A stretch of 55,709 bases of DNA, counting the filler, from Jimgerdemannia flammicorona (Eukaryota), in assembly GCA_003990765.1 (NCBI GenBank). It is 3 parts of 3 records of this genome, joined end to end, with 100 filler letters (N's around TTAATTAATTAA, not from the genome) between each part and the next. Parts side by side here need not be neighbours in the genome. Positions count along the whole stretch, not along the records: positions 18,605 to 37,107 come from RBNJ01002195.1; 2 more parts are not named here. The stretch is one strand, 5' to 3'. The stretch's first letter is position 1. The number at the start of each line of letters is the position of its first letter. This document shows positions 6,401 to 37,207 of this stretch, piece by piece. The notes below the pieces were generated by a model that worked only from the letters and a program-made list of their open reading frames with translations, did not search any database and had not been told where the DNA came from. The translations under genes and the position numbers were made by a program.

Positions 6401-9400
6401 TGGGGACTATTGAGGCAGGGACAGTTTGGGGGGAGTGGAGATGGACCCAGACATTGGTACCTTAACTCCTCCCTGCTGGCTGAGCAGGGTTTGTGGGACC
6501 CATGGGTGGTGGATGTCCAAGTGAAGATCACCACCTGGATAAGTGAGGGTGCATCTGTGGGTGTCCGGTGGATGAGGCTGAAGGAGGCTGCTAGGGTTTA
6601 TTGGGGAGGAGCTGGTAGGGAGGCTGGGAGGCAGTGAAGGAAGAGAGTGAGGTATGCTTCCAATAGGCTGATGAGATTGCAGATGGATTGGGCCGAGTTG
6701 CTTTGATCTGAAGAGATGGAGGATTGGAGGTTGGAGCAGGTGAAATTGGAGATAATAGAGCTGCAACATGTATTGCAAGCTGAGGAGGAGATTCGTATGA
6801 AAGGTATGGCTGCCAGACTACAGTGGCAGGGGCTTGAGGAGGGAGAGTGGCCCACTAGATACCTGTCAAGGCTCCTCTAAGCTAGGAGGGTGCGACATTG
6901 ATGGGATGGAGTCTTGGATGCTGAGGGAGATATGGTGCATAGCACACAACAGATCTTGGGAGTACTGAAGGAAAGATGGAGGGCTCTGTAGAGTGAGAAG
7001 GAAGGGGGTGCTAATGAAGAGGCGATTGAGGACTCACTGGAGGAGTGGGGGCCACTGCAAGTAGAAGGACTGGGTGATTTGATCTTACCGGTCCAAGAGG
7101 AGGAAATCCAGAGAGTCCTTGCAGCAACTAAGCTGGGGACAGCACCAGATGAGGATGGATTACCTTGGGACTTCTGGAAAAATATGGCAAAGGTCCCTGG
7201 AGTTTTAGGAGAGATGGCTGCACTCTGTGACTATATTCTTCTGAATGACAAGTGGGTTGGAGAGCAGGACCTGGGGCTGGTGGCCTTATTGTACAAGGAT
7301 AAGGGGAGGAGGGAGGACTGGAAGAACTGGAGGCCAATCATGCTTCTGAATATGGACAGGAAGATAGTGACTAAGGTGATTGTTGCGAGGCTACAGAAGG
7401 TTGCCCAACAGGTGCTGGGGGAGGAGCAGAGGGGCTTTGTGGGAGGCAGGCTTATTAGGGAATGGACTGCCTGGGTGCACGGCATCATTGAAGGGGCCCG
7501 GGCTTGTGGACTAGATGGTAGACTGGTCTTTTTGGACCAGGAGAAGGCCTATGACCATGTTCAGCAGATCTGGCTAGACAAGGTGCTGGACAGAATTGGT
7601 GTTCCTCCATGGTTTCAGACTTTTTGTTGAATTTGTTAGAGGGCAGTAGGGCAGTGCTAATGTGTAATGGTCACTGGAGTTTGGCATTTCCCTTGGGAAG
7701 AGGAGTTCCTCAGAGAGACCTGCTGTCTCCTATCCTTTATGCCCTTTCATTGGAACCTTTGATGGATAGGATCCGTCAGAGGGTGGCAGGGCTCTCTATA
7801 TATGGTGTGGTGTAGAAGATGGGGGCCTTTGCGAATGATATGGTAGTTGGACTTGGATCAGTGGCAGATGTTGAGGCACTTAAGGAGACAGTGGAATGGT
7901 ATGAGGTGCACTCTGGGGGGAAACTCAACTGGCATAAGTGTGAGACAATAGTGTTAGGGAATGGGCTAGTGAGAGGGGGCATCATTGGAACAATTGTCCC
8001 TACAGAAGAGGTGGTGCAGTATTTGGGCATCTTTTTTTCTATATATGGATCTGTCTTACCTCAAATATGGTGGGAGAGGTGAGTGGCCATTTGGGGGAAG
8101 GCTCTTCGAGGTTGGGGGGGTCGCCACATCTCTCTGGTGGGGCAGGTGTCAATTCTGAATGTCTACTGGTTCCCCAAGCTATGGTATGTGGCCTATCACT
8201 TAGATTTCCCAGCTTGGGTGGTGAAGAAACTGACTAAACTGGCTAGGGATTAAATTTGGGCAGGGAGGAGGTCTCAGATTGGTTGGGATACTCTTGTAAC
8301 ACCAGTGGTTAGAGGAGGACTAGGCCTGGTGGATTCTCTAAGTGACTACACTGCCTGCAAGCCTGGTGGTTGAAAAGAGCTATGGAACTGCAGGGAGAAG
8401 GTTGGGTGCCACTGATGCAGAAGGTGTGGGAGATGAGGTTCTCTCCTTGGGGGTCCTCAGGAGATTTGCTCTCTCTGGTGGACCTGACTGGAAGTTGATG
8501 GCTATGGTATAAGGGCTTCTGGTGGGGGGTGGTGGATGGAGTACACCAGATAGGCCTGTGCTGATGAGGGAATGAGAGGGGAGGTGCTGTGGGGTCCAGC
8601 TATGTGGCAGTAGGACAGACTCCTTCTGGGGGGTGTTCTGCTTAATGAGTTTGATATTGGTGATAGGGTGGAGTGTCAGCAGGGATCTGGCCAGGATCTT
8701 TGGCCAAGTAGTTGGCAGGCAGTGGGGATTGGTGAGGAGTGGGACTGGGCAGGAGTCTGGTCATGGAGTGCTGAGGTGTGGAGGTGACTTCCTCCCAAGT
8801 TCTGGGTGGTATGGTGGTGGATGCTGAGGAGGAATATCATGCTAAATTTCTGTGCTGGGCATCTGGTGGATGGTGGCCAATTCGATTGTGAGGAGTGTTA
8901 TAATGTAGGGCAAGTTGGGGGATTTGTGCAAATACCAGAACATTGGCTAGGAGAGTGTGAAGTTCTTGGGGACTTTTGGATAGCAGTAGGGGACCGCCTG
9001 GGTGTGGTGAGGAGGCCAGATAGAGAGAGAGGTTGCTGGGAGGATTTGAAATCTCGTTTAGTGGGGGGTGTTGACAATGGTTGGCTCACTGTAGAGTGGG
9101 TTTTAGTGGTGTGGGTAGGGCTGGCTGGATATTGACTCTTTGTTTTTGAGGAGGGCTGACAGATAGGTGTCCAGGAGAAGTTGTTAAGGTGGGAGGGGTT
9201 GTTGGGTGATTTGCTGACTAGGTGGTGGATTGGTTGGGGTCTCCAGGGTGGGTGACGTCACCAACTGATGGAAGGGATCTGTAAACAGAGTGGTGGGCAA
9301 GTGCTGCTAGTGTCTGACAAAGTGGTCTTTCATCACAAGGGGATAGGGGGGGGAGGGGGTGGGGGTGGAGAGCCCCCTAGGAGGATCGAGTAGGGGTGGA

Positions 9401-12429: not shown

Positions 12430-15400
12430 TATTGTAAAAGAGAAGCACTTTAGTGAAGTTATATAAGTTATATATTTCATATATTACTGATAAATAATAT
12501 AAATCTGATAGAATGACATAAGTTACATATTAATATATTGAGTTGCCATTTCAACACTCCTACTCAACAAGATATATAACCCAAAAATTATATATAAAAT
12601 CCTATATTTATAGAATTTTGTAGGTTGAAAAGTATTCTATAATACTTGAAATACCTATAAAAATCCACTCATAGATGAGAGATACAGTAAGAATGCAAGT
12701 TGTAGATGTGGATATTGCAAATGTGATAAGGGAGGCTTTTAAGAGCCTGAAAAAAAAAAAAAAAAATCATGATTAACTGCTAGACTAGCATATTGCTCAT
12801 AAGACTCATTCCTTATATGCATAGCTTAAACTTCAGCTTTGGAAAGGCTTTTGTAAGTGAATTGGCAATCATATATATCATGGGGGTATATATATTTCAA
12901 GTAGATAGTATTATTTACTATACATTTATGAATAAAATGATACTGTATATTGATATGTTTTATTCTACTATAATGTACCAGGTTCTTGGCAAGTGTAATT
13001 GTAGACTAGTTATCCTGGCATAGTGTAGTGCTCCATTTTTGAGCAAATCTAAGTTCTTTCAATAGTTTATAGAGCCAAATGACTTCCTTTATTACCAATG
13101 ACAATACTTGATACTCCACTAGTATTGATGATATTGCTATAGATGATTACTTATATGTTTGCTACAATATAACTCTTTTGTTATTTTTGCTAATGTGGAA
13201 GAGATATCCAGTCATAGATTGGTTGTCATTGAGATCACCTGCCTAATTGATATTATTTGGACCAGATAGCCAAATACTATTTTTGTTACTCTCACTATTA
13301 CTATTATCCAATGTAAGTATATAGTATACTATACTCTTAAGGTATCTAAATATTCTCTTAATGGCACTCAAATATAAATTATTATAGCAAGAGGAATACT
13401 GCACCACTTTATTTATAGTATATGATATATTGGGCCTTGTTTCTAGCATAAAATATATAAGAGAACTGACTGCTTGCTGATATAGTATATTTTTGATAGT
13501 GTTTTTAATTAGTATATTGTTGTCATCCTCAGAAATAGTGTCCAGCTTTCTTAACTTCATGAAAATCCATAGGAGTATAAATAGACTTATATTTATTTAT
13601 ATTGAACTATTTGAGTATTTTTTAAATATATATTACTTGTGAGAGATATATGATATACATATTTCTGTTATATATAATAGATATCCCCAAAAGAAAGAAT
13701 ATATCACCCATATCTGTCATCCTGAATTCTTGGTATAGGACTTCTTTAACTCCACTAAGTCTATTCTTACTGGCAATAATAATTATATTGTCAACCCAGA
13801 TACCAATGAAGACTATGCTGCCATCATCATAGTACTGGATATATATGCAATTATCTGCTTTACAGTGAGTGAATCTATCATCAAGGAGATATTTATCAAT
13901 CCTTTTATTTCATAGTTGTACTGCTTGTTTGATGCCATATATCCCTTATATAGTTTACATATAAGCTCCTTTTGCTCATTGTCATATAGTTCATATCCTT
14001 GTAGTTGATAGATATATAGTTTGGTATCTATATCACTATTTAGGAATACTGTCTTAATATCTATTTGATGGATTTCTAAATCATATAGCATGCCAATCAC
14101 AAAGATTATTCTAAGTAAAGTAAGCTTAAATATTAGTAAAAATATCTACACTATAATTCTTTAAATAATTCTTAGCAATAAAAAGAGCTTTATATCACTC
14201 TATACTTCTATTACTCTTATGCTTAATTTTATAGACCCACTTGGATCTAATTATTTGGTAATTTAGCAGAAGGGGTATGAGATCTCATGTATCATTCTTG
14301 ATAAGTGAATCATATTTCTCATCTATCACATGTTCTTATTTATTGCTTTTCAGAGATTATATGACTTTATCATATGTATTTGGCTCATCAGATATTACTA
14401 TATATATACATTTATATACTTCAGCATAGCTTACATAGTTTTGTTATTACTGCTACCTAGGGTTCACTAGCATACTTATCCCAATAACTTCCTAATTCAG
14501 AATGAGTTTCTCAGTAGATATTAGAATACTTTTGCTTATACTTTATAGAAAATCTCTCATTCTTGATCTCTGTTATTTTTGGTTTATACAACTCTGGCTC
14601 AGGCTTAGGTATATATAGTAATTGAAAATAATTTTGATTTACTACTTAAGAGGTAGATGATGGTTGTTATACTTGTGCTGGCTGAGATGTAGATATATTG
14701 ACTAATACATCTATATGAGATTCTTTATTTTCTTTTTCTCTGAATTATACATCATGCAAAATGATGATATGTTGCTTACATAGATCCCAGAGTCTGTATA
14801 TCTTACTGGTGCTAGAATACTTAAGAAATATGTGTTTCCTGACTTTTGGCTTGAATTTATGCTGATTGATATTACTCTTATTGAGGATATATGCATTGTA
14901 TCTAAATATGCATAGATGTGATATATTGGACTTAGATCCACTCCATAATTCTTCAGGGCTGAGATCATCATCTTCATACTTATTGTTGTTATTACTGGCT
15001 CCTTTGCTTAGTATTTAAGATATGTATCAATTACATATATATGTTTCTATATTGGTAGCTTTGGCCTAATAGGAGTATCTCAAGCCTACTGTATTAATCA
15101 TAATATAAGTCATTTCTATGACTATATGGTTAAATTGCTTGGCCACACCATTTTTCTGAGGTATATAGAGAGCTATTATTTGATATTGTATACTACATTT
15201 TTCAGGAATTACCTAAATATATCATTAATGTATTCATATCTGTTATCTGATCATATAGTGCATATTCTATGTTCTGTTTCATTCTTAGTAATCACTTTGA
15301 ATTTTTTGAATTTCTCTAGTACTTCACTCTTTACTAATATAAAGTATACATATGCTTTATATATATAATTATTGATGAATATAATGAAATACTTCTTCCC

Positions 15401-17545: not shown

Positions 17546-18504
17546 TGTAACGTGCCGGCTCAATGGAGGCAAATTACAAGGTTGGGGGTTGATGTAGTTT
17601 GGCTTGAGCCCCCAGTTACTTTGTTAAAAGCAACAAAATGTTCTTGGTGTTTAGCAGTATAATAGTCAAGATCTGGATACTGTGCGAGCGGTTTCCTTTT
17701 TGGGACGGTTCTCTGGGTGTAGCGGCGATTTGTGTGTGAATGGACTTCCTTCTTGGGTCAACTGGGAATGGCACAATTTCTGTGTAGCGCGACGATCTCC
17801 TTGTGCGTGACGGTCTGGCAATTTAACGGTTCTCCTTCTTGGGTGGCGGGCGATCTTCGTGTAGCGCGGCGATCTTTGTGTAGCGCGACGGGTTTCCAAA
17901 AGTATGCGATTTCTGGCGGGTGACTCGATTTGGCTCACTGAGAATATATGGCGCGGATTCTTCCTAGGCTCACTGGGAATAACGGATGACTCGGAAGGCG
18001 CGAATCGGGCTCTTCTGGGAATGCGGATAACTTGGAAATGGCGGATGACGCGGATTCTTCCGAATCGGCGGACTTCTTGAGAACGGCGGCTTTAACTGGG
18101 AATACGGCGGATAACTCGGATAACTCGGGTGGCGCGGATTCTTCCTGAATCGGCTTCAACTGGGAATACTACTCGGATTCTTGGCAAGTTACGTCAGAGA
18201 CTGGCTTCGTTTGCGCGGGGTTACGTCGTAGACTGGCTCCACTGCGAAGTTACGTCAGAAAGACTGGCTTGTGGCAAGAAAGGCGGCGGAAATCTTCAGG
18301 CTTATCTGGCAAGCGAACCAATAACAATAATTCCAAAGGCGGCGAAGTTCTTCCTTGAACTTAGGCGGCAAACTCGAATTCTTCAGGCTTATCTGGCAAG
18401 CGTACCAAAAACGAACTCGTTCTTTGTATCGGAAAGTGGACCGGAGTGGAAAGGGGAAATAAGCTCACAATCTCCTAACAGTGGCTGTAGAGTTCCTCTC
18501 GAAG
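17546..18504. mobile_element. Probable LTR/terminal region of a younger LTR retrotransposon, cut by the gap
   Basis: Abrupt switch to CpG-rich sequence starting TGTAAC. Internal direct repeats (cttcaggcttatctggcaagcg at 18294 and 18381; gtgtagcgcgacg). No recognisable protein. Confidence 0.4.
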
Positions 18505-18604
18505 NNNNNNNNNNNNNNNNNNNNNNNNNNNNNNNNNNNNNNNNNNNNTTAATTAATTAANNNNNNNNNNNNNNNNNNNNNNNNNNNNNNNNNNNNNNNN
18601 NNNN
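18505..18604. other. Assembly gap linker
   Basis: N44-TTAATTAATTAA-N44. Confidence 0.98.
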
Positions 18605-19773
18605 TTCTCCGCTACCTTACTGGTCACAAGGTTTGGTAGGCGACCTTCCGAGTCTCCTTTCCCCTAATATTACCCCCTCTACCTCGGGTTGGTTTGCTGT
18701 GCCTGTAGGGGCATGGTGGGAGGAGGGCAATAGTGATGAGTTGCCCCTTTATCGGTGTCGGATCGGTGCTTCCTCCACTTTTTCGCGGATTCTGGTGCCT
18801 TCAGCTACATCTGGGGTATACCCATTTTGGTGCGGCACCTTCTTCCTTTTGCCGTCGCCAACAAGGAGTTGTCTCGGTGTGTCTCGGGCTACGTAGAGAG
18901 TTGGCCAACCTTGGGCATCAAGTGCTCAGTGTAGGTTACCTGCAGGTCCTCGGTGCCTGTGGTGGGGCCCTCTGTCTTTGGCGAGCTTCCCGGCGAGCGC
19001 AGTTCTGGCGTAGGTGACTGCTTTTCGGGTGATGTCGGGATGGAAGGGGAGATGGCCGTCACAGATAGGCGGAAGGGCGATTACGGTGAACCAGTAGGGT
19101 GCCAGGCTGGGGGCGGTCGTCAGGGCTGGGGCAGGTGCTGCTTCGGTGGGGCCTTTTGATTGGTGCGGCGCGGTTAGGTGGTAGGTGTCACTCTCGGCTT
19201 CTTTTGGCAGGTAGCGGGGTGAGGCCCCAGTCGTCAGGGGGGGTCAGGGGGCCCGAGGCTACCCATTTCAGGCGTCTTGGCTGCACTCAACTGGAACCGG
19301 GAGCTGACATGGCAACGTGATCGAGGCCCACAGGCTTGAGTAGTGGGGTATTGGGGGTTTCCTCCCACCTCACGTGTAAGTCCTTTACTCACCTCGACTG
19401 GGAGAACCAGGCCCTACCCACCATGTTGTGCTTTGATGCAGGTTTTTTCTTTGCCTGTCATTCTCTTTGGGGTGGCAGGGGCTATTCTATTTGGCTCGGG
19501 CGTGGCCTTGTACATACATTGGGTTCTCAGGTATGCGCTTTCGGTTGTTGGCATATGGTTGGGTTTCTCCTGGTGGTAGAGAGAGCATGGTGTACAGAAT
19601 GAGGTGCGGGCTTATCAGTCCTGCTGTGCCTGGCATGGTCGAGCTGCTGGACAATAGCTAGCCTAGGTTAATGGGGGGGCAGTGCTTGGTGGGTGGTGGG
19701 GGAGGGTTTTGGCCTATATAGTCTAGGTTCCCTTCCAATAAAAATCTGCGGGACATGAGTCCGTAAACAAAAA
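18605..19773 (+). mobile_element. ~1.2-kb non-autonomous poly(A) retroposon, copy 1 (CpG-rich; 5' end in gap)
   Basis: Aligns over its full length with 27168-28352 and, inverted, with 19868-21104. Ends AATAAA...gggacatgagtcc...A-tail. Confidence 0.85.
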
Positions 19774-19867
19774 GTAGAATGATGAAAACTATTGACCTCC
19801 TCAGTTTTATAAGCTAGACAGTTTGATAGATTTATCTTATACTTTTATTTAAATATATTATAAAGAT

Positions 19868-21104
19868 TTTTTTTTTTTTTGTTTAATAGACTCAGAGTCC
19901 TCTAGATTTTTATTAGAAGAGAATCTAGACTATATAGGCCAAAACCCTCCCCCACTACCCATCAAGCACTACCTCTCCATTAACCTAGACTAGCTAATGT
20001 TTAGTAGCTCAACTATATCAGATATAATAGGGCCTATGTTGGCCTGTACCTCATTCTATATATTATATTCTCTCTACCATCAGAGAGAACTCAGCTATAT
20101 GCCAATGACCAAAAGTGTATGCTTAAGACCCCAATATTTATACAAGGCTATACCCAAGCCAAATAGAATAGCCCCTACCATCTTAAAGAGAATGACAGGC
20201 AAAGAAAAAACTCTCATCAAAGTATATTATGGTGGGTAGGGCCTGATTCTTCCAGATGAGGTGAGTAGAGAACTTATACATAAGGTGGAAGGAGACCCCC
20301 AATACTCTACTACTCAAGCCTGTGGACCTCAATCATGTTACTATGTCAGCTCTTAGTTCCAGTTAAGTACAGCTAAGATATTTCTGTGGGACATGAGTCC
20401 ATTAAAACAAAAAAAAAAAACAGCTAAGATATCTGAAATGGGTAGCCTGGGCCCCCTGACCTCCCCAATGACTGGGGCCCAATCTGCCAAATTATCAAAA
20501 GAAGCCAAGAGTGATACCTACTACCAAACTACTCTATACCAATTAAAAGGCCTCACTGAAGCAGTACCTGCCCCAGCCCCAATAACTGTTCCCAGCCTGA
20601 TACCCTACTGGTTCACCATAATCACTTTTCCTTCTATCTGTGATGGCCATCTCCTCTCCCATCCTGACAATACCTGAAAAGCAGTTATCTATACTAGAAC
20701 TATACTCACTGGGAAGCTCACTAAAGCCAGAGGGCCCTACCACAGGCACTGAGGATCTGCAGATAATCTTACTAGGCACTTGATGCCTAAGATTGACTGA
20801 TTCTCTATATAACTCATAATGTATTGAGACAATACCTTATTGGTGATGGCAAAAGGAAGAAGATGCTGCACCAAAATAGATATATCCCAGATATAGCTGA
20901 AGATATCAGAATTTGCAAAAAAGTAGAAAAGACACTGATTCATAACTGATAAAGAGATAACTCATCACCATTGCCCTCCTCCCACTATATCTATGTAGAT
21001 ACAGCAAACCAACCTGAGGTAGAGGGGATAATAATAGGGAAAAGGGAACTCAGAAGATTGCCTACCAAACCTTATAACCAGTAAGGTAGCAGAGAAAGAA
21101 GCTG
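19868..21104 (-). mobile_element. ~1.2-kb retroposon, copy 2 (most mutated)
   Basis: Poly(T) at 19867-19880. 13-bp TSD atatt(a/g)taaagat at 19855-19867 and 21105-21117. Confidence 0.85.
20382..20419 (+). mobile_element. 38-bp 5'-truncated copy of the same retroposon nested in copy 2
   Basis: ttctgtgggacatgagtccattaaaac(A)n flanked by TSD acagctaagatat at 20369-20381 and 20420-20432. Confidence 0.85.
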
Positions 21105-21122
21105 ATATTGTAAAGATATATA

Positions 21123-21383
21123 TAATACTCTCAAATGAATTAAATCAATTTAAATCAAATCAAATTGGGGTTTTTTCAATTTGAATAAAGTTCAAATTTG
21201 AATCAAATTGAGGATCTGATTCAAATTCTATTTTTTAAAATATAATAACTTGATAAAAACATATCTAAATTTAACAAGCTAAAGTTGGTTAAATTTAGAC
21301 ATATTTTCATTAAAAAATAGAGTTTGAATTAAATCTCAAATTGAATTAAATTAAACCTTTGCTTTGATTTATTAAGAACACTA
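21123..21383. mobile_element. Fold-back MITE-like element
   Basis: Nested inverted repeats 21264-21275/21288-21299 and 21219-21238/21310-21329. Right end ...aacacta (TAGTGTT on the minus strand, hAT-like). Confidence 0.55.
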
Positions 21384-22129
21384 GATATATATAAAAAGGA
21401 GTTGGTATAATAAGCTACAAAATAAAGATCAGTGATATATATTTTATATAATATATATCAATAATTATTTCTATTAACAGATTTTTATTTGGCAAAGATC
21501 TATATCTGATCAAAGAAATACTTACTATCTTTGTAGTACTATTATAGTTAGGTAAATAATCCAGGAGTTAACATAATAATAGTTAGTTATTTAAGTCATA
21601 TTGCTACTCTTTTATCATCTCTACCTCATCTATACAACTATTCTACATTACCTTATTAGTGCCAAGTGCAAGCATAATCTTGGCCATGAGTTTATCTGGC
21701 AGATGACTCATTGTGTGGTTTGAGGCCCATCTATACCTGTATGTCTTTTTGTACTGATTATGGGTGGTCCTCTCTCAAGAGAGTGTATTATATATATATG
21801 AATAATTTTAAAATTGCTCTAATATTTAGCATTACAACCCCTATACATATTAATAAAAAAATGATTGACAATCAGAGTTTTCATAATTTTCGAGGGAGCA
21901 GGTATATAACTGGGACTTGGTTAGTGTGTTATTTTTTGCGTTTCTCATTTAGATGTAATATTGACTAGTGACAAAATTCATGCGGTGGTCGAGGTTGGTC
22001 CAATTTCAATTTATGGCGCCAATGACGATGACGTAAATGTATTAGCCAACAACAAAAAAAATATATAGCCACCAAACGCGTCAATGAACCGAAAACGTTT
22101 ACTATTCCTTTCCACTCCTACTCCCCCTT

Positions 22130-22440
22130 ATTTTTTACCAGGCTACGCGTCCCACTACCACTTGGTAGCGTGTGCGTGTACTCTGCCGTGCACCTAACCT
22201 CCTACGGCGTGGGAGGGACAGAGGCGGGGTGGGCAGAGCTATGGCTTGGAGGAGATACCAAGCTTGGTGCATAGCCTGGTTCGTCGGATGCACGGCATTC
22301 CCATTCGCCCCACGACAGGCAGCTGTCCCACTCCTGGGAAAGCAGTTTGCCTTAACCCCCAGCAGGGGGGGACAAGTCGTGGATCAGGTGGGTGGTAGGT
22401 ACTCCAGCCCCATGACCCCTATCGAAGGCTTGGGAGCTTG
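22130..22440 (-). ncRNA. Highly base-paired, pseudoknotted GC-rich RNA-like element (possibly a retroelement 5' UTR)
   Basis: Helices 22137-22148/22269-22280 and 22184-22192/22289-22297 cross each other. Additional hairpins at 22198-22216, 22244-22263 and 22310-22382. Strand is tentative. Confidence 0.4.
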
Positions 22441-22810
22441 ACCGGTTTGGGGATTCCCCTGTTTGTGTCGCCTCCGAATGAGGAGTGTTACCTTGCGGTC
22501 TTCGCCCTTCTTCCCCCATCGTTAGCTAGCAACGGTCGTTCGTAAGAACGATCTCGCACATTCTCAACCTTTTTCCGTCCTTACTTGTATTCTAGGCGGT
22601 CGGGTTTTGCCCTCCGTTACCACACTTGGTGTGGCTTTTGGCGGTTGCCGTCAGGCAGTCGTTGGTCTGTTCACATTACTTATCATTATTCACATCTGCA
22701 AACGTAGCCACCAGGACTGCCCGTCCATGCAAAAGCTAAGTACTCATATTATTGCTTCGCACTTACAATCGTTTGTTCGCAACAAATATATATTTGGCCG
22801 ATATGAAAAT

Positions 22811-22879
22811 GCCATATCGGTCTTGGCAACTCTAGAAGCCAACTGACGAGCCCCTTGAGTAAGGGCGAAACCGATTGGC
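22811..22879 (+). ncRNA. Type III hammerhead ribozyme
   Basis: Stem III atcgg/ccgat, GUC cleavage triplet (cut after 22822), stem I ttggc/gccaa, CUGACGA core at 22843-22849, stem II gccc/gggc and GAAA at 22867-22870. All core nucleotides are intact. Confidence 0.9.
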
Positions 22880-24918
22880 TACGAAATAATTACGTAAAAT
22901 ACGCGTGAAATGTTAACAGCCATGAGCCTTCATTCCCACGCTCGCGACATACACTCTGCTACTGCAAGGACCTACTGCAAGGACGAAAACCCCCACCCTC
23001 ACCGAGATTGTATGCCGAGGTCTCCCTTCTTTGAACGCACTCCACAGTACTCCGTACGGGTCGGGTCAGCCGTGGGTACCCGACGACATTCTGGCCTCCA
23101 CCAAGATTCGTACTGCCAAGTTTCTGGTCGTGGATCCGACATGGCTTCGTGAGCTAGGTGGATCTTCGTTAGTCCATTCGGTTGGGGTTTTCGTGTTAGA
23201 GTCTTCGTTAGCTTTCCAAGTTGAATCTTCTTCCGGGTAAGTAACCTAACCTAACCTCGATTTTCTGACTATTACAGATCAAATTCGGGTTAACGCTAAA
23301 CGAGATGCCACCCGACTCATGCGGGGCACTACTCAACAGCCACTCCATACATCCTGCTGCAAAACAGTCGCTTTTTGAGTACTCCTTAGAATCTTGTCTA
23401 TGTTAGTTATTTGGTGTCATTCGGAAAAAACAGTTCCCGAGATAGAGTTTCAACTACTTCCTATTCTAACAACGTCTCACTCCGCTTCTCGAAGATGGAT
23501 GACCCAGTGACAAACTATACACACCATCGAAGAAGAAATTAACCTCCACGGAACATTTATTGCTTTTCTCCTCACCAGGGCCAACCCTTGAAGACTTGCA
23601 ACAGTGCCAATTTTCAATTGTCCTCTACATTCGCGTCCGCCCTTACGCAACATTCCTGCATCCCCCGAGATTGTCATGTATTCCAATATTTGCCTGTCTT
23701 TTCAATGTTTTCGAGAACTACTATTAGTGTATGGATTTGTGAAAATATGGGGATCACGGAGCTACATGGTATAAATGACGTATAAATACCTTCACAAAGG
23801 GGATGTAAACCGTTTCTCATAATTGCTTTAGTCAATATTACAATTCATCCATCGTATTATTATCTATCATATCACATTTCCGGGTTGCTTGTGAAAGGTG
23901 TAGCGACTTTTTTGCTTACATTCGAATAATTATGGTTTTCCTGTGCGTACGGGGACTGCTACATGATTCGATCGCACTATTGATGAGGGTCGAGAGGGCG
24001 ACTGGGTTCAAGATACCACATTTGCTTGTGAACTGGATCTTTCCCTGAGACGGGGAATTACGAATTTGGCGGCTTTCCTTTTGGTGGCATTGGAGGGCAT
24101 GGGTCCTTGACATTTTGGAGACAGGAGCCGTATGCGTCAAATACCGTGGTGATGTGGTTTGTCAATGACGATTACTCAACCGGTCTGGCTTCAACCTTAT
24201 CCGCGCCATAAGAATTGTGGACAGAAGCTCTTCAATACGTCGAAATGGACTAAAATTCGCCAATGAAACAGAGCATGTTTTAATGACATGAGACAGTTGA
24301 TAAACGAAACTTTCAGGTAATATCTAGCGTTACGGCATATATAATATATATATACATTTTTCTACAAAATCCTTTCAAACCCGAATAGCCAATTTTCATT
24401 CTCCTTTCATTAAGAAAATTACGGAACAGAATCGAGGGCTATCATCAATGTAAACTTCGAAGGGGAGTACATCGTCGCTGCGTTCAATTCCCAAGCTGCC
24501 AAATGTTGTGCTTCCTGCTTTCACGTTCTGGCCACCGCAATCTGACGCTCTTACCCCAGACCCCGTTTACCGAGCTCCTCCCCGGTGTTCCACATACTTA
24601 GTACCCCAACTCATTCGTTACCCATCGTCGATCATCTATCCACATGAATGGTTCGAATAGCTTTCAGTGTTTCACGTCCGTATCCCTATCCGCCTCCGAG
24701 ACGGAGCCGACAATCTGCGGCATAACAGGGAAGAAGGATGATATAGATTAAAACAGAATTTTCAGGAAAGAGCAGATACGGTCATCGAGAAGGGGAAAGA
24801 AATAAGAATACTGGGTCCCGCACGAAGCTAAAATCCCCACGGTGTACCCTAACCACACACACTCCACGGCGCATCTACGGACACTCACCTCCCGACCCGC
24901 CACACAACTCGGCGATAC

Positions 24919-25036
24919 CTGCTTCGCCCTCCCAGTACGTGACGAGAGTGTTGTCGGTGTCAGGGACGTTGGGTGCCTCCATCAGGCCGATGGCGGTGCC
25001 GTTGCGGTAGCCGACCTCGTGAATTGTCTTGTACAT
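24919..25036 (-). CDS. Possible coding exon of an unidentified gene or gene fragment
   Basis: MYKTIHEVGYRNGTAIGLMEAPNVPDTDNTLVTYWEGEA with GC3-rich codons like the host genes, followed by GT donors. Other exons not resolved. Confidence 0.3.
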
Positions 25037-27167
25037 GCATGATTTAATGAGATAAGGGTATGGATAGGAATGTAATAAACATGAGGTCGTGTCCCGCTAT
25101 CTCACCCGACACACAGCAAAATCAATATATGCCACGCAGTACATACCACCTCCTCGCCCTTCCTCCTTCCACCCCTCCACCCCCCTCTCCCTCTCTCTCC
25201 CTTGCCGGTTCGATCACAAGGTTCCGGTTCTCATAAAATGTTTTCCCAAAACTGGATACCCATGTCGCTGGCACAATCCTTTCTCCTTCTCTCTTCCTGT
25301 CCAACTTCTACCCCGATTCCAGCGGATAATCATTGAACGGGAATTTGCAACGATGGGAGGTCGCCAAGGCGCCTGAGTACCGATCACGCCAGGGTGCAGG
25401 CTCGGGAAGGAAATGTGTTGCGGGGCAGACGTGTACGAGGACGCACTCAATCACAATCTGGCTGACCCGCCTCCGCCTCTCCCCCCCACCTAACGCGGTT
25501 CCTTGAGCGACGACTTGCCCCAGGGTGAAAGTCTACTACCGGAAAACGATTTACGGCTTAGCGAAGAATTATCGCTGAATAGCGGAGTCATTCCAAAAGG
25601 AATCTGGTAATGCAAGGGGTCATTCCCAGGGTAATGCAGGAGTAGGATATATAGGTGCTTAGCCAACTATATGTGAGAAGTGCAAGACGTGGGTAGCAAA
25701 GCGTAAAGAATGGTGGGGAAACGACGCCCCGAGCCTGTTGTCAACAAGTTATACGAAAAATATATACGTGCGAGTATATATACGCGTCAAGTGTAGTGAA
25801 ATTAGAGTCACTGTAGTGAACCTTGCTAATTTCCACACAACCTACCGTCAAAACAACGTCTGCGAGCTTGAAGAAATTACTTTCGCAAAAACCGTAAAAT
25901 GGGCTCTAGAACATATGTCCCAACAGAAGCGGAAAAAAAAAAAAAGGAAAAGAGGAATCAACCACTACATCTTGGCACCAGTCTATTTTTATAGCGCCGC
26001 CTACATACTACCAAGCCCACCCTTTGCGCTCAAAATGTATATGGAAGACGCCAATTTATCAATAGCGGTTGTGGGTTTCACGTATTTTGGGAGTGTTGGA
26101 AAATTTTTTGGGCGCCAACTTCACGCCTGGCTTCAAATTTAGTGCCGTATCTACGATTCAACCCGCCCTTTTCAAAGAAAAAATTTCTAATGTTTCTTAT
26201 AGACTATACTGGTAACAGCTATATATATATAATAAAAAAAGAAATAAATGATAATCATTAACTAATATTTCTAGAAGCTGTAACCTCCAACCAGTGGCAG
26301 ATAGATTATTGTCTGCAAACACATAGCATACACACAAACTAACCATAACATTGGAATGATGCAAGCCAATTTAGTCATTCAAACGATATCTGCCCTATCA
26401 GAACTGAGGAGTTTGGTTAATTGACCTCAATCCTTTTGTAATATAAACTGGTCTACAAGTCATATCCATATTACATAGCCCAATTATTTAGTTAGAAGAA
26501 ATTGTATATATAATTAATATCATTAATTACAATATAGAGGAGACTTTGAAATATTTAGAACCTATATGAATTCACAAAGAGCAAGGTATCCAAGGAATCT
26601 GTATAATAGGTTGCTTTTTCTCTACAACAAGATCAAATAGCTTCTTGGCAATAAGTAAAATGATCATTGCCATAAGAAATATATCTGATATAAGGGGGGA
26701 AATAATCAGTTCCTAAATGTAAACTGAGTATAAGGTCACATCAGAGTGTTAATATATAATCACATACCTCAGTAGCTGATATAGTATCTTACTATATATT
26801 TTTAAATACCTGAATATAGTCAGCTTTATATTTTGCAAAAATATATTTTTACCGATAGAGTATTCTTATAATATATAGAACAATGTGATTATAATTAAGA
26901 GATCCTAATATCTCAACTGCAAAAACTATTCTATAGTAAAATTAAAATAAATAATAGAGAGCAAACTAATAGTATATTGTATATATAACTTTCTACAACT
27001 TTAGAATACTTTATTACTACTATACAGACTATATTTCCATTAAGAATAATTCTAGATGGAGTATTATTATGTAATTAAAACATTGATGATATATTATATT
27101 AACTCATCATACTATATTACTAATTTTTTTTTTTTAATATATAATATTGCTCAAAGACTTAAAGTAA

Positions 27168-28352
27168 CACTCCTTTCTCTGCTACCTTACCAGTCACAGG
27201 GTTTGGTAGGTGACCTTCTGAGTCCCCTTTCCCCTAATATTACCCCCTCTACCTCAGATTGGTTTGCTGTGCCTGCAGGGACATGGTGAGAGGAGGGCAA
27301 TGATGATGAGTTGCCCCTTTATTGGTGTCAGATCAGTGCTTTCTCCACTTTTTCGCAGATTCTGGTGCCTTCAGCTGCATCTGGGGTGTGCCCATTTTGG
27401 TGCAGCGCCTTCTTCCTTTTGCCATCACCAACAAGGAGTTGTCTCAGTGTGTCTCAGGCTATGTAGGGAGTCAGCCGACCTTGGGTGTTAAGTGCTCAGT
27501 GTAGGTTACCTGCAGGTCCTCAGTGTCTGTGGTGGGGCCCTCTGGCTTTGGCAAGCTTCCTGGTGAGTGCAGTTCTGGCATAGATGACTGTTTTTTGGGT
27601 GATGTCAGATTGGGAGGGGAGATGGCCATCACAGATAGGAGGAAGGGCGATTACGGTGGACCAGTAGGGTGCCAGGCTGGGGGCAGTTGTTGGGGCTGGG
27701 GCAGGTGCTGCTTCAGTGGGGCCTTTTGATTGGTGCGGTACGGTTAGGTGGTAGGTATCACTCTTAGCTTCTTTTGGTAATTTGTGGGGTTGGGCCCTGG
27801 TCATCAGAGGGGGTCAGGGGGCCCGAGGCTACCCATTTCAGGCATCTTGGCTGTACTCAACTGGAACTGGGAGCTGATACAGCAATGTGATTAAGGCCTG
27901 CAGGCTTGAGTAGTAGGATATTGGGGGTTTCCTCCCACCTCATGTGTAAGTTCTCTACTTACCTCAACTGGGAGAACCAGGCCCTATCCACCATATTATG
28001 CTTTGATGAGGGTTTTTCTGTGCCTATCATTCTCTTTGGAGTGGTAGGGGCTCTCCTATTCGGCTTGGGTGTGGCCTTGTATATACGTTGGGTTCTCAGG
28101 TATACACTTTTGGTTGTTGGCATATGGCTGGGTTTCCCCTGGTGGTAGGGAGAGTATAGTACACAGAATGAGATGTGGGCTACTTTATCCTACTGTGCCC
28201 AGTATGGTTGAGCTGCGGGACAATAGCTAGCCTAGGTTAATGGGGGGACAGTGTTTGATGAGTGGTGGGGGAGGGTTTTGGCCTATATAGTCTAGGTTCC
28301 CTTCCAATAAAAATTCATGGGACATAGAGTCCATTAAACAAAAAAAAAAAAA
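27168..28352 (+). mobile_element. ~1.2-kb retroposon, copy 3 (full length)
   Basis: 15-bp TSD aaagacttaaagtaa at 27153-27167 and 28353-28367. Poly(A) tail, and the same 5' end as copy 2. Confidence 0.9.
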
Positions 28353-28639
28353 AAAGACTTAAAGTAAAATTTAAGTATAAATGTAATAAGTAAGTTGAAA
28401 GTATCTAAATATTCACAAGTTTAAGACAAATATATTATATAAATATATTATTTATATATAATATAATGACCAATATATTATCTACTTACAAATAAGACTA
28501 ATTAAAATAAAAATACAATATATATACTAGAAGAAATGTTATCTTATAATGGTTGATGAAACTGCTGACTACATATGGTAAAACTGCTGCCCTATCACAT
28601 ATTTATATATCTCTATTCTTTTATTTATTTTTAGCTTTA

Positions 28640-31609: not shown

Positions 31610-33069
31610 TTAGAACCCTTTTTCTACAATCGACCCTGTTTCCATATCATGTTCGTGTTTCTTGGCTACTTTGCCCTGGACTATCGAATCTAATAACCCT
31701 CTATCAATCACGTAATTGGATAGAAACCCTTCGAGTTTCTCCAAACGCGCTCTAAGGATAATAACATCCTCGGCAGGATCAGCCTCAGGAGATATTGGAA
31801 TTGGATCAGCAAGCGGAGTGCCGCTCTTAACAATGCTATTGGGCGGATTGAATCCATCGTTTAGCGGGCCAGAGAGTACCGATTTGAAAACATTCTTCTG
31901 GAAAATACCCCTACCCAGTAGCAAAGATGTATTGAGTTAGATAAGTGATGACAAGGTATTATATTACAATAATGGAGAAGAAAGAAAGTTACCATGGTGA
32001 AAGCCTAGCTGCACCAAATAAAATAATGAATGCAGAGGCGACACCACCGTAGAGACCGCCGATGAGACCAAATAATTCACCCCACGAGTGGATATAGTGC
32101 TCCCGGTTTACCATATAGTAATCTGTGCGGGCTGAAAACATGACAAAAGTTCTTGAATCGTTGAACTCCGACGGTCGGGTGATATATGTCTGAGCGTTGG
32201 TATAGTACGTGTGGCCTGTGACATCCACGTTCAATACGTAGTCAATCGTGATATCGAGTATCTCTCCAGGAAGTACGGCGTAACCGGGTAATGGATCGGT
32301 TTTTTTAGGATAATAAAGTTTGTCAGTTTCATATCGCGGATGTTGATTGTCAACTAATAATCTAAGGGTTGTATATGGTTGCATTGTGACGTTTGGTGGA
32401 GGCGAAAAGTCGATTGTGAAAACACTGAATCCGGTGCAATAGATTGGTAGAGGGTCGGGTAGTTCGTTGCATGTAGTATAATCCGAGAAAAAGAGGGGCG
32501 ACAGGAGATAATAATTGTAGCTCATCATTGATCCTTCCAGGTCTACGTTTCCATCCAGAACTTCTGCGCAATAGGGAGCTCTGGTTGAGTTTACTTTCTT
32601 GTCTCTGGTTACATGTTGGATCTCACAACCCACTTGGATGTAAGGCGGCTCCCATTTGGACAGATCTGGTGAATACCACGCACCAAGAGTCTCTGTCACA
32701 TTTGAGAAAATATTAGCTTCCATAGTTCCAGCGGATACAGCGTATCATTAACCCAAAACAGACTTACTAGGGAAAGGGAAATAGGGATAGTAATCTGTTG
32801 TATTGCGTCGGACCCGAGTTGATACAATGTAGATTTCCCCCCTGAAGGTACAAGGGTCAACTGCAATAATTAAATGCTGATGAAATCAGAGTTCCAAAAT
32901 TCATTTTCATGCGAGGATTTTCATACCTAGTCACATCTAAGATCAGAAACACCAAATAGACAAGAATGCCAACGAAACCGCAAATGACTGTAGCCCTCCG
33001 CAGGAGTACAAACCAGCGTGGTTCATAGCGTGTGGTTTTGCGAAAGAAAGAGAATACCTCAGAGAACAT
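31610..33069 (-). CDS. Two-TM membrane protein with large Cys-containing loop, paralogue A (405 aa)
   Basis: Exons 33069-32927, 32841-32768, 32692-31993 and 31910-31610 joined by GT-AG introns give an open frame. N-terminal TM, C-terminal TM, LSPWG motif and RLEKLEGFLSNYVID tail. Confidence 0.85.
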
Positions 33070-34267
33070 TATGAATAGTGATTAGGGGTATATGGAAGCA
33101 AAATCTACGTGCCAATGATCCGGATTTAAAGGTGTCGAAATAGCGTTGTAAAATAGTGTCCCACGCCCACGGGACCTTATCTCGTTTCACACGTTTCTCT
33201 TTTATCTTTTCATCCGCGTTCTCATCCTCCTCTTGGTCTTTTGCAGTCTACCCTACCATATCAGTGATCCGAGTATAAATTCCAGATGGAAGAGTAACAC
33301 AGTGTACAAAAAACGGAACGATTCCAGAAAGGATACGCGGAACGAAGAGCAAAGTCTAGGCCATATTTTCTGGTCTGTACGCGGCAAAACGAGGAATCTC
33401 AGCTACAAAACGAATTCCTTAAATCTGATTGACATATTTAATCTATCTAGACATATAATAAGGTCTTTACCTCAGTTATGCTGTAATAAGTATTACCAAA
33501 AAAAAAAAAAACGAAGCACGGAAATACGAGAATTCCCGTCTTTGAGATTCTGCTTTGTTTGATGGTATGCGAACGAATCAGAGATGTCTCGAAATTTGCT
33601 TGTCGTACAAGATGGTGTTTGCGTTACCTTCAGTCGGAGTGTAAGTTCACCACGTTTCTTTTTGAAACGTAGATCTCCTTTTTCATGCTGGTGACAGAAT
33701 ATAATTGGATATCTCGGGATCTTCGTTTGTTTAATAGATAATTGTGTGATCAGCGCATACGCAGCATGCACACAAAGCTGCCGACTAGGCATGACGAGAC
33801 TCCCTAGAAAGAGTTCTGAAGTCCTCTCGATCGGTGGCAGTAAACTCCTTTACAGCACCAGTGCTACCTCATGTTAACTGTGCTTTTGGGTTACTTAACA
33901 CACTTTTAAAAGACCTCGAAGTCACAGAATTGATCTTATAACAATATTTTAAAGAAGGCTGCAACTAAGGGAACGTGCCGAGGCAGTAGATGTCCCACGT
34001 GGATACAACATCGCCTATGCCTGATCTCAATGGCCATGTTAGTTTCCCGAAATGTGTTCGCTTAGGTCAGCAGGCAGGCCCAGCTTACAGGCTCAACTTT
34101 TTGTAAATCACACGGGGACAAATTCGAAGCCAAATTCTGGTGTAATTGGCTCATACAGTGAGATATTGGGTTCCTTGGCCTGGAGGATCTCTAAAATATC
34201 TATTTTGATACTATACGCATAATAGGGTCGCTCTATTAGCGTATAATACAAAGATAATTACTAGGGA

Positions 34268-34656: not shown

Positions 34657-36207
34657 TTAACAGCAGGGTAGCGTTGTGGCAGTGGGAGAGGTTGGGAGGG
34701 ATAATTTCGTTTCAGCAGGATGTAGAATGTGGGCACTTCGGGAAGAAGGGAGTGAGTGGCGCATAAGTGGACCCGCCTCCATTTCGTGTTCATGTTTCTT
34801 GGCTACTTTGCCCTCGACTATAGAAAATATCAATCCGCCATCAATCACATAATTGGATAGAAATCTTTCGAGTTTCTCCAACCGTGTCCTAATGATAATA
34901 GCATTCTCGGCAGGATCAGCCGCAGCGGACATAAGAATCGGATCAGCAAGCGGAATGCCGCTCTTATGGTTGCTATTGGGTGGGTTAAAGCCGTCGTTTA
35001 GCGGGCCGGAGAGCATCGATTTGAAAACATACTTCTGGATAATACCCCTGCAACGAAGCAAAGATGTATCGAGTTAGATAGGTAATGACAAGGTAGTATA
35101 TTACAAAAATAGAGAAGAAAGAAGGATTACCATGGTGAAAGCCTAGCAGTACCAAATAAAATAATGAATACAGAGGCGACGCCACCATAGAGACCGCCGA
35201 TGAGACCAAATAATTCACCCCACGAGTGGATATAATGTTCCTGATTTACCATATAGGAATCGGTTCGAGCAGAAAATGAGACAAAAATTCTTGAATCGTT
35301 GAACTCCGACGGTCGGGTGATATATGTCTGAGTGTTGGTATAGTACGCGCGGCCTGCGACATCCACGTTAAATGCATATTCAATCGTGATATCGAGTATC
35401 TCTCCGGGACGAACGGCGTAATCGGTGCTTAGATTGGTTTGGTTAGGAAAATAAACCTCACCGGTTTTATATCGCGGGTTTTCATTGGCAACTGATAATT
35501 TAAGAATTGTATGTGGTTGCATTGTGACGTTTGGTGGGGGCGAAAAGTCGACTGTGAAAACACTGAATCCAGTGCAATAAAATGGTAAAGGGTCGGGTAG
35601 TTCGTTACAGGTAATATAGTCCGAAAAATAGAGGGACGGTAGGGTATAATAATTGTAGATTATTATTTGATCTTCCAGGTCCACATGTCCATCCAGAACT
35701 CCAGCGCAATGGGGAACTTTTGTTATGTTTACGTTCTTGTCCCTGGTTACATGTTGGATCTCACAACCCATTTCGATGTAAGGCGGTCTCCATTCGGACA
35801 GAGAATGCGAATACCACGCACCGAAACTCTCTGTCAAATTTGAGAAAATATTAGCGTCCATGAAGCCAGCGGATACAACGTATCATTAACCCAAAAAACG
35901 ACTTACTAGGGAAAGAGAAAAAGGGAAAGTAATCTGTTGTGTTGCGTTGGACCCGAGTTGAGACAATGTAGGTTTCTCCCCTAAAGGCACACATTTCAGC
36001 CACAATTATTAAATGCTGTTGAAATCGAAGTTCAAAATACATTTTCTTGCAACGAATTTCATACCTAGTCACATCTAAGATCAGAAACACCAAATAGACG
36101 AGAATGCCAACGAAACCACAAATGGCTGTAGACCTCCGCAGGAGTACAAACCAGCTTGGTTCGTAGCGTGTGGTTTTGCGAAAGAAAGAGAATACCTCAG
36201 AGAACAT
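34657..36207 (-). CDS. Two-TM membrane protein, paralogue B (435 aa)
   Basis: Exons 36207-36065, 35980-35907, 35830-35131 and 35047-34657. The first three exon lengths are identical to paralogue A (143, 74, 700 bp). Confidence 0.85.
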
Positions 36208-37107
36208 TACGAATAGTGATTAGGGGTATACAGAAATAAAATCTACGTGTTAATGACGCGGCTTTAATAGGAGATGCCCTCTGGAATGAGTTACGAGTCA
36301 AAACGACCTGCGAAGACGTGTCCCACGCCCACGAGGCCTCATCTCGTTCACACATTTCTCTTTTCTCTTTTCATCTGGCAGTCTGACCTATCGTATCTGT
36401 GGTCTGAGTATACATTCCAGATAGGAGAGTAACACAGAGTGTTCAAAAAACAGATCTGCACGACTTGTTTCAAAAGGTGATACAAGATGGTGTTTGAGGC
36501 AAAAGATGAGCCAATCATTGGATATCACGGGCCGCAGTGGGAAACGCCTATTTCGGGGGAGGCTTGCTCACCTAATCGGGAGGAACCGGCCAACAAGACA
36601 TGACCATTGGAAGCAGGAGTCATCAATAGGCACGTTCTCTTAGTGCAGCCTTCGTATATCCTAAAATGGTATAAGACCAATTTTGTGACTTTGAGATGGT
36701 CTTCAAAAGAAGCGCGGTCTACATAAGGCACGACCAATCGCGAGGACTTGGGAACTCTTCCTAAGGAGTCCCATCTTGCTTTTATCCCATAGTTGGTAGC
36801 TTTGGGCACAAAACGCCGCTGCATGCTGTATATGCACTGACCAAATATCTATACGAAGATCTCACATCTCTTGAACAAGATTTACTATTCTATTCCGTCG
36901 TCAGAATAAAAAGAGTGAGCGACATTCTAAAAACGTTTCAAAAAGGAACGTGGCGAACTTACAATCCGATTCCCACAAAATTGAATGTAACTCAAACGCC
37001 ATCTTGTATGACAAGCAAACTTGCCTTTTGAAAAGACACGTTTTGGTTCGCATACAATCAAAGCAGAATATCAAAGACCGGAATTCTCTCTCTTTTTTTT
37101 TTTTTTT

Positions 37108-37207
37108 NNNNNNNNNNNNNNNNNNNNNNNNNNNNNNNNNNNNNNNNNNNNTTAATTAATTAANNNNNNNNNNNNNNNNNNNNNNNNNNNNNNNNNNNNN
37201 NNNNNNN
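37108..37207. other. Assembly gap linker
   Basis: N44-TTAATTAATTAA-N44. Confidence 0.98.

Follow-up and report, generated by a model that had tools for sequence, protein, structure and literature searches.

A type III hammerhead ribozyme motif in a probable non-coding repeat of the fungus Jimgerdemannia flammicorona

The genome of the fungus Jimgerdemannia flammicorona (GCA_003990765.1) contains a complete hammerhead ribozyme motif of type III, which raises the question of what kind of element carries it and what it does there. Among DNA-borne hammerheads, type III is the usual form in LTR retrozymes of plants, and type I that in tandem retrozymes of animals and in Penelope-like elements. The motif lies in a stretch of 55,709 nucleotides, filler included, which was analysed as a whole and is called the window here. 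The window joins three parts of three records of this genome, which need not be neighbours, and all positions count along it; the part with the hammerhead comes from RBNJ01002195.1. A first-pass annotation had described the motif as an intact, solitary type III hammerhead and had proposed that it is a relic of an uncharacterised fungal retrozyme, Penelope-like or viroid-like element, or a domesticated RNA-processing site.

The motif at 22811-22879 (+) is almost certainly a genuine type III hammerhead (Table 1). Its topology is that of type III, with helix III open (10 bp, one bulge) and helices I and II capped by loops. Sequence reading and the Rfam alignment agree that all consensus-fixed core positions are present, at 22843-49, 22867-70, 22821-22, 22850 and 22866; the core elements tested were C3, U4, G5, A6, N7, G8 and A9, then G12, A13 and A14, the A15.1-U16.1 pair, H17, and the G10.1-C11.1 pair. 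The Rfam model Hammerhead_3 (RF00008) matches 22815-22876 at full length (model positions 1-54 of 54) with 45.2 bits. The match has E = 9.2e-9 in a 501-nt search and E = 1e-6 over the whole window, the latter value covering both strands and already counting all 4227 Rfam families. The score is lower than the curated gathering score of 48.5, so the motif is unlisted at gathering. In the alignment, loop 1 carries 7 nt more than the model and loop 2 a single base more, and the outermost pair is mismatched; the core is free of mismatches. A type III descriptor of our own finds one locus in the window versus matches in 0 of 400 block-shuffled strand-windows. In the isolated 70-mer, the hammerhead fold has -23.0 kcal/mol versus -23.5 kcal/mol for the minimum free energy (MFE) structure, a gap of 0.5 kcal/mol. 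The complete fold, its helix III of about 10 bp and its type III topology, as first read from the letters, were thus all recovered. The alternative agccaa/ttggct pairing that had been pointed out also exists and is weaker, at -18.3 kcal/mol versus that of the hammerhead fold; a type I reading of this pairing was rejected, because the position needing U16.1 holds a G. A GAC-GAAAAC-like string near 22975-22990 was likewise considered as a second, degenerate hammerhead and rejected, as it has no CUGANGA box upstream and belongs to a 13-nt tandem duplication. Rfam found no other hammerhead on either strand of the window, and on the minus strand no ribozyme matched at E <= 10 in 22600-23100 or at E <= 1 window-wide.

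Table 1. Positions of the hammerhead, its parts and associated features in the window.
Feature	Position	Strand	Basis and details
Type III hammerhead, complete	22811..22879	+	RF00008 match, descriptor scan, fold energy
Helix III, 5' strand	22811..22821	+	Outer 4 bp 22811-14, bulged U 22815, inner 6 bp 22816-21 including U16.1; pairs in the evaluated structure
Predicted cleavage site, C17 (22822) / U1.1 (22823)	22822..22823	+	Inferred from Rfam alignment position and hammerhead chemistry
Helix I, 5 bp (22823-27 with 22838-42), with 10-nt loop 1 (22828-37)	22823..22842	+	Sequence, Rfam alignment, fold
Core CUGANGA box, here CUGACGA (N7 = C)	22843..22849	+	Sequence, Rfam alignment
Helix II, 4 bp (22850-53 with 22863-66, G10.1-C11.1), with 9-nt loop 2 (22854-62)	22850..22866	+	Sequence, Rfam alignment
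Core GAAA (22867-70) and helix III, 3' strand (22870-79)	22867..22879	+	Sequence, Rfam alignment, fold
Competing upstream hairpin, 9 bp (22796-22804 with 22814-22822)	22796..22822	+	Sequence; seen in flanked MFE folds
Ribozyme core segment common to contigs with unlike flanks	22836..22873	+	Fits of contigs of runs X2 and X3
Non-coding, multi-copy, diverged repeat around the ribozyme, approximate extent	22098..23822	.	Depth, joints, contig pieces; no Pfam domain in ORFs

Loops 1 and 2 are complementary to each other over 6 bp with one mismatch (-5.1 kcal/mol), a value equalled or bettered by 82 of 5000 loop shuffles. A loop-loop pseudoknot of this kind is described as a common tertiary contact in fast hammerheads (PMC3088659). 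The length of helix III argues for an action as a monomer in cis, a prediction made from this feature. Once flanks of 30, 60 and 100 nt per side are included, the hammerhead-constrained fold lies 4.5, 10.6 and 8.8 kcal/mol above the MFE, respectively, and the competing upstream hairpin of Table 1 ties up the 5' strand of helix III together with the cleavage site. Since the flanked hammerhead fold is less stable and this hairpin competes with it, the folding models suggest that cleavage may be poor in longer transcripts. The window copy is somewhat more likely than not to be able to self-cleave. Contigs of two public runs, X1 and X2, span the cleavage site 22822/22823, which is neutral as to cleavage.

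The ribozyme sits in a gene-free stretch. At the thresholds used, no Pfam family was found in 18.6-28.4 kb, either in 14 frames of at least 90 aa or in 95 frames of 45-89 aa, and none of these 14 + 95 ORFs contains a reverse transcriptase (RT) domain. The earlier statement that no RT ORF lies nearby therefore holds for this interval; degenerate LINE and Copia fragments, with RT remnants, are found 9-17 kb upstream of the ribozyme in window coordinates. One of them (5876-7627, +) is a degenerate LINE-like endonuclease with RVT_1, located in a block that is rich in GC and strongly skewed towards G, and the other (13246-14145, -) is a degenerate Copia-type RVT_2 in a block of 27-28% GC at 10-16 kb, the GC content of the window being a mosaic. 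Two sub-threshold Pfam hints occur in short frames, namely TIMELESS (E = 0.012, 23919-24161, -) and Vac_ImportDeg (E = 0.0073, 24878-25096, -), and these frames could be left over from a gene, split or decayed, that lay downstream of the repeat. The gene content marks the window as fungal: elsewhere, it encodes an RGS/Rax1-like protein, whose nearest Atlas clusters are mostly from Basidiomycota, with a third from Mucoromycota. A tandem duplication (31613-33130 / 34660-36270; 3.1-kb spacing, 83-91% identity) has in each copy an open 251-aa frame on the minus strand (31992-32744, 35130-35882), to which no Pfam family was assigned.

With respect to repeats around the ribozyme, no direct repeat was found within 21100-27170, no tandem array at the ribozyme locus, and no other copy of 21100-27170 within the window. 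The claim that no second copy lies nearby is borne out across the window by both Rfam and self-comparison. In tRNA-derived SINEs with a hammerhead, of the Schistosoma type, a tRNA-like pol III promoter lies upstream of the ribozyme; ARAGORN reported no tRNA-like gene in 18000-28500. The ribozyme is flanked in the window by copies of a non-coding sequence of about 1.2 kb with a 3' AATAAA and an A-rich tail, at 18605-~19775 (+), ~19900-21100 (-) and ~27148-28355 (+), with a mean column identity of 78%; by these features it resembles a poly(A) retroposon of the non-autonomous kind. It was considered whether the 1.1-kb direct repeats (18605 and 27175) are a pair of LTRs on either side of the ribozyme, and this was rejected, because the AATAAA, the A-rich tail and the inverted third copy mark them as separate retroposon insertions. 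In the inverted middle copy, C-to-T and G-to-A differences are numerous, and 51 nt are inserted. Four runs of 44 N, paired 12 nt apart (18505-18548 and 18561-18604; 37108-37151 and 37164-37207), are masked sequence or gap, and one of these pairs truncates the 5' end of the first 1.2-kb repeat.

Regarding the wider repeat context, contigs of public runs contain many relatives of the locus. Two small runs, X1 and X2, both labelled with one organism, each contain 30% of the words of the stretch, and four soil metagenomes contain 5-20% of them; contigs of X1-X4, where X3 is a soil run, were aligned to 21500-24500 at 80% likeness. None of the runs listed is on record as RNA; the kind of X1 and X2 (RNA or DNA) is a guess, and summed contig depth would represent copies if they are DNA, and expression or other core-sharing RNAs if they are RNA. 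The contigs of X1 and X2 that are identical or nearly identical to the window copy have a depth of 3.6-8.2, and the summed depth of the bins in 22106-23822 is about 130-1340 in X1 and 8-890 in X2, for runs of guessed kind. The bin that contains the ribozyme (22813-22913) ranks second by depth in X1 (1265) and first in X2 (892). Some bins further out, such as 21803-22004 and 24126-24327, have no cover. Among the aligned contigs (69 from X1 and 44 from X2), nine in each run are at least 99% alike and most others are 80-95% alike. Joints in the contigs indicate other copies that are without 22896-23063, 23234-23321 or 23375-23633, and the repeat around the ribozyme is a mosaic of segments whose ends are approximate, not to the base. 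Comparison of the window copy with the contigs gave no signal of RIP bias, because transitions occur symmetrically; in X1 there are 14 A>G, 17 T>C, 15 C>T and 11 G>A. These depths, from runs whose kind is guessed, indicate that the hammerhead is very probably repeat-borne, with a copy number of the repeat of perhaps about 100 if X1 and X2 are DNA. The description of the motif as solitary is therefore correct inside the window and fails for the genome, given that the run contigs show the stretch and the core many-fold. Neither a target-site duplication nor an autonomous partner of the repeat was found. No joint among the 14 listed runs backward, and TG...CA ends and a target duplication were not seen by eye. 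For the primer-binding site, polypurine tract and 4-bp target duplication that mark LTR retrozymes, looking over the candidate ends by eye likewise gave nothing clear, and at about 22098 and 23790-23810 the search for terminal inverted repeats or a target duplication gave only a 12-nt imperfect inverted match, about 0.1 of which would be expected by chance according to our estimate. An intron-like 40-nt string at 23238-23277 (GTAAGT ... CTGAC ... TACAG) encloses (TAACC)3.2 at 23242-23257 and falls inside the segment 23234-23321; the intron reading was set aside, as the string is without ORF context.

The contigs also delimit the most widely shared part of the repeat. In X2, three contigs match only from 22836 onward and six only up to 22873, and the most abundant contigs have only a 38-nt core in common with the window. 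In the soil run X3, one contig (record 21) matches only 22818-22875, and another covers 22725-22893 with 8 differences. Since the contigs of X2 and X3 fit the core and differ in the flanks, the ribozyme core is shared by several sequence contexts that are otherwise unlike. The consensus of the loose ends before 22836 keeps the GUC triplet and the 5-bp helix I, with one wobble. This consensus and that of the loose ends behind 22873 would pair into a 9-bp helix III, partly through other letters and with one pair changed on both sides. Such a compensatory helix III in the variant contigs is only suggestive, because the agreement of the two consensuses is just 0.71 and 0.57 and they come from different contigs.

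Metagenome contigs were scanned with a pattern of helix II and the core, giving at least 121 loci. At least 20 of them (L007, L008, L012, L013, L018, L027, L036, L039, L044, L052, L060, L062, L068, L069, L077, L088, L094, L110, L111 and L121) form one family with a type III hammerhead built like that of the window, comprising a 5-bp helix I, a 9-12-nt loop 1, the 4-bp helix II of the window and a similar loop 2. Loops 1 and 2 of the family are also complementary, through letters other than those of the window. In contrast to the window, helix III is shorter (3-6 bp), and the likeness ends at the ribozyme. None of the metagenome matches listed contains the flanks of the window; blastn gave two core matches only, of 36-37 nt, and nhmmer with the family profile matches the window only at 22836-22880 (E = 1.8e-4). 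Hammerhead_3 recognises 8 of the 20 loci at E <= 0.01, with one match each and 32-39 bits (below gathering), and none of the 20 has two pattern matches within about 3 kb. The six loci that were aligned show a dispersed unit, about 440 nt long, which carries the ribozyme at its very 3' terminus, with about 13 nt remaining to the unit end. The unit begins with a stretch resembling a tRNA B box. The family contigs look eukaryotic, with split gene fragments.

Covariation was evaluated in an alignment of 17 rows, consisting of the window and 16 of the 20 family loci; L027 and L062 (damaged 5' halves) and L077 and L110 (ribozymes identical to those of L044 and L069) were left out. In this alignment, 90% of the cells pair and 5 of 15 pairs change on both sides, a result matched by 0 of 500 shuffles, for rows that were picked by the pattern (helix II fixed) and are alike in the ribozyme only. 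Slid controls paired in 12-48%. All 15 tested stem pairs are standard in the window copy, which supplies both double changes of helix I and has in common with L111 the C-G variant of one helix III pair. Within the family, helix III covaries, with G-C, C-G and U.G at one pair. As judged from these aligned sequences, the covariation between window and family is one within a structural class, and the metagenome relatives may be convergent with the window ribozyme. Viral contigs gave one match, a GC-rich type I motif unrelated to that of the window. A further locus of the scan, L105 (~300-345), carries a type I hammerhead with helix III reduced to a single pair, which closes a palindromic 4-nt loop; this build is the dimer type described for Penelope-like elements, and the helix II and loop of this hammerhead closely resemble those of the window.

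On balance, and with somewhat better than even confidence, we regard the hammerhead as a conserved module of an uncharacterised non-coding dispersed fungal repeat family, of which the window holds one copy. A transcript of the plus strand would fold into a three-way junction with helices III, I and II of 10, 5 and 4 bp, in which loops 1 and 2 would pair with each other, and the RNA would cut itself between C22822 and U22823. The upstream product would end in a 2',3'-cyclic phosphate, and the downstream product would begin with a 5'-OH and retain nearly the whole ribozyme. A likely role would be the processing of the repeat's own RNA and its release from flanking or read-through transcripts; this role is proposed by analogy, because the ribozymes of retrozymes, Penelope-like elements and some LINEs have been assigned the same one. 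Transcription, cleavage, the processing role and mobility of the repeat are what we infer for this family. The multi-copy, diverged 1.7-kb relatives support the view that the motif stems from a repeated and probably mobile element that is uncharacterised, and this much of the original proposal stands; its candidates, namely retrozyme, Penelope-like and viroid-like element, each fail their own test in the window copy. Indeed, the definitions of LTR retrozyme, tandem retrozyme, Penelope-like element, viroid-like element and tRNA-SINE all fail at least one tested feature here. The features of a non-LTR (tandem) retrozyme are absent, there being no tandem array and the topology being type III, not type I.

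Among the alternatives, the motif could be a solo LTR or a fragment of a fungal LTR-type retrozyme, whose full-length relatives would carry two hammerheads in direct repeats and whose transcripts would be cut twice and circularised. This reading is unlikely, with a small chance that should be taken seriously. It accommodates the type III topology, which in DNA genomes is typical of plant LTR retrozymes, and a non-coding element that is multi-copy as read from runs of guessed kind. In addition, nine of hundreds of retrozyme loci in Nicotiana benthamiana are full-length (PMC9695139), and small non-autonomous LTR elements occur in fungi (PMC10886601). However, no second hammerhead and no direct repeat accompany the one in the window, and the absence of backward joints among the 14 listed, as well as of TG...CA ends and a target duplication by eye, speaks against LTRs. 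The related loci point in the same direction, in that 0 of 20 have paired pattern matches and the eight recognised by Hammerhead_3 are single-match, and no report of a fungal retrozyme was found among the papers searched. It is also improbable that the window copy is a decayed relic that no longer cleaves and has kept the motif by chance. The neighbourhood is a graveyard of degenerate elements, and competing folds win in longer context, as a relic would allow, but the core bases are all intact, the tested stem pairs are all standard and the loops are still complementary. Moreover, the ribozyme bin is among the deepest, and the core recurs in contigs with unlike flanks. With an intact core and a near-optimal isolated fold, the word relic in the first-pass annotation is not borne out.

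The remaining readings have far lower chances than the dispersed repeat family favoured here. A pseudo-LTR part of an endonuclease-deficient Penelope-like element of the Coprina type, with a hammerhead beside reverse-complement telomeric repeats, is highly improbable. Fungal members do carry monomer-stable hammerheads with a large helix III (PMC4209133), and Athena and Coprina join the motif with telomere-complement stretches (PMC8557442), to which the (TAACC)3.2 tract could be compared. This tract, however, is 16 nt long, lies 363 nt downstream and does not have the CCCTAA unit; the window has no CCCTAA or TTAGGG runs of three or more units and is not a chromosome end. The lack of an RT domain in 18.6-28.4 kb, together with the type III motif of the window as opposed to the type I motifs described for the fungal elements, also disagrees with such an element. 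Slighter still is the chance that the deep contigs represent RNA from a fungal replicon, viroid-like or ambivirus-like, with the same ribozyme, the genomic copy being an endogenised piece or the source of the ribozyme. X1 and X2 are guessed to be RNA, they contain just 30% of the words of the stretch with uneven cover, and the X2 contigs of top abundance share the 38-nt core alone; in addition, hammerheads of infectious circular RNAs are nearly all of type III (PMC13725137). Against such a replicon, the flanks of the window copy are likewise diverged and deep, soil runs that are guessed to be DNA contain the locus and a core-only variant, and the minus strand is without a ribozyme. The least probable reading is a chance look-alike or a single domesticated RNA-processing site of the host. 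A score under the Rfam cut-off and a single copy in the window would agree with it, whereas the window-wide E value, the 0 of 400 shuffles with a match, the multi-copy context and the lack of any gene around it do not. The multi-copy diverged relatives thus argue against the single domesticated site that had been suggested at first.

The locus can be compared with several known systems. Like plant LTR retrozymes (Cervera, Urbina and de la Pena 2016), it is a DNA-encoded type III hammerhead, stable as a monomer, in a non-coding, multi-copy and non-autonomous repeat; unlike them, it has a fungal host, one ribozyme, no LTR pair and no sequence likeness beyond the core. The fungal Penelope-like elements (PMC4209133) resemble it in their context of fungal retroelements, in the length of helix III and in the monomer activity to be expected. 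Their hammerheads are of type I, with helix I open, and lie in the pseudo-LTRs of RT-coding, telomere-associated elements, whereas the window motif is of type III and comes with neither RT nor telomere. Two further fungal cases were compared by description only. In Yarrowia lipolytica (PMC3088659), hammerhead motifs occur in interspersed repeats of fungal nuclear DNA, as in the window, and in Pleurotus ostreatus (PMC5040776), five Rfam Hammerhead_3 matches, and thus type III by Rfam, are listed in the annotation without comment. The HDV-like ribozymes at the 5' ends of non-LTR retrotransposons (PMC13725137) offer an analogy, in that they cut near their own 5' edge and the downstream RNA retains the ribozyme. 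They belong to another class, and the hammerhead product, in contrast, would lose the 12 nt upstream of the cut that are needed for helix III. Among the full texts searched, none describes a fungal retrozyme or a fungal genome with a characterised repeat that bears a type III hammerhead. The fungal reports found there are of three kinds, namely Penelope-like elements with type I motifs, one yeast in which motifs borne by repeats are mentioned, and one mushroom genome with Rfam type III matches that are left unexplained.

The present locus is therefore a new example of the known association between hammerheads and repeats, which is well documented in plants and animals, and not a new mechanism; for its host group, there are hardly any descriptions of such elements. 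The part of the non-coding repeat that is shared most widely is a well-formed type III motif, which may serve as an entry point to fungal retrozyme-like elements and perhaps to circular RNAs of genomic origin. One may speculate, as a doubtful proposition at this stage, that fungi own retrozyme-like elements, that is, non-coding DNA repeats with a type III hammerhead and a loop-loop pseudoknot, which would be transcribed, self-cleaved and perhaps circularised, and which would act as a reservoir or sink of fungal viroid-like hammerhead RNAs. If this were true, the deep contigs that have only the core in common with the window would be such RNAs or their many genomic variants.
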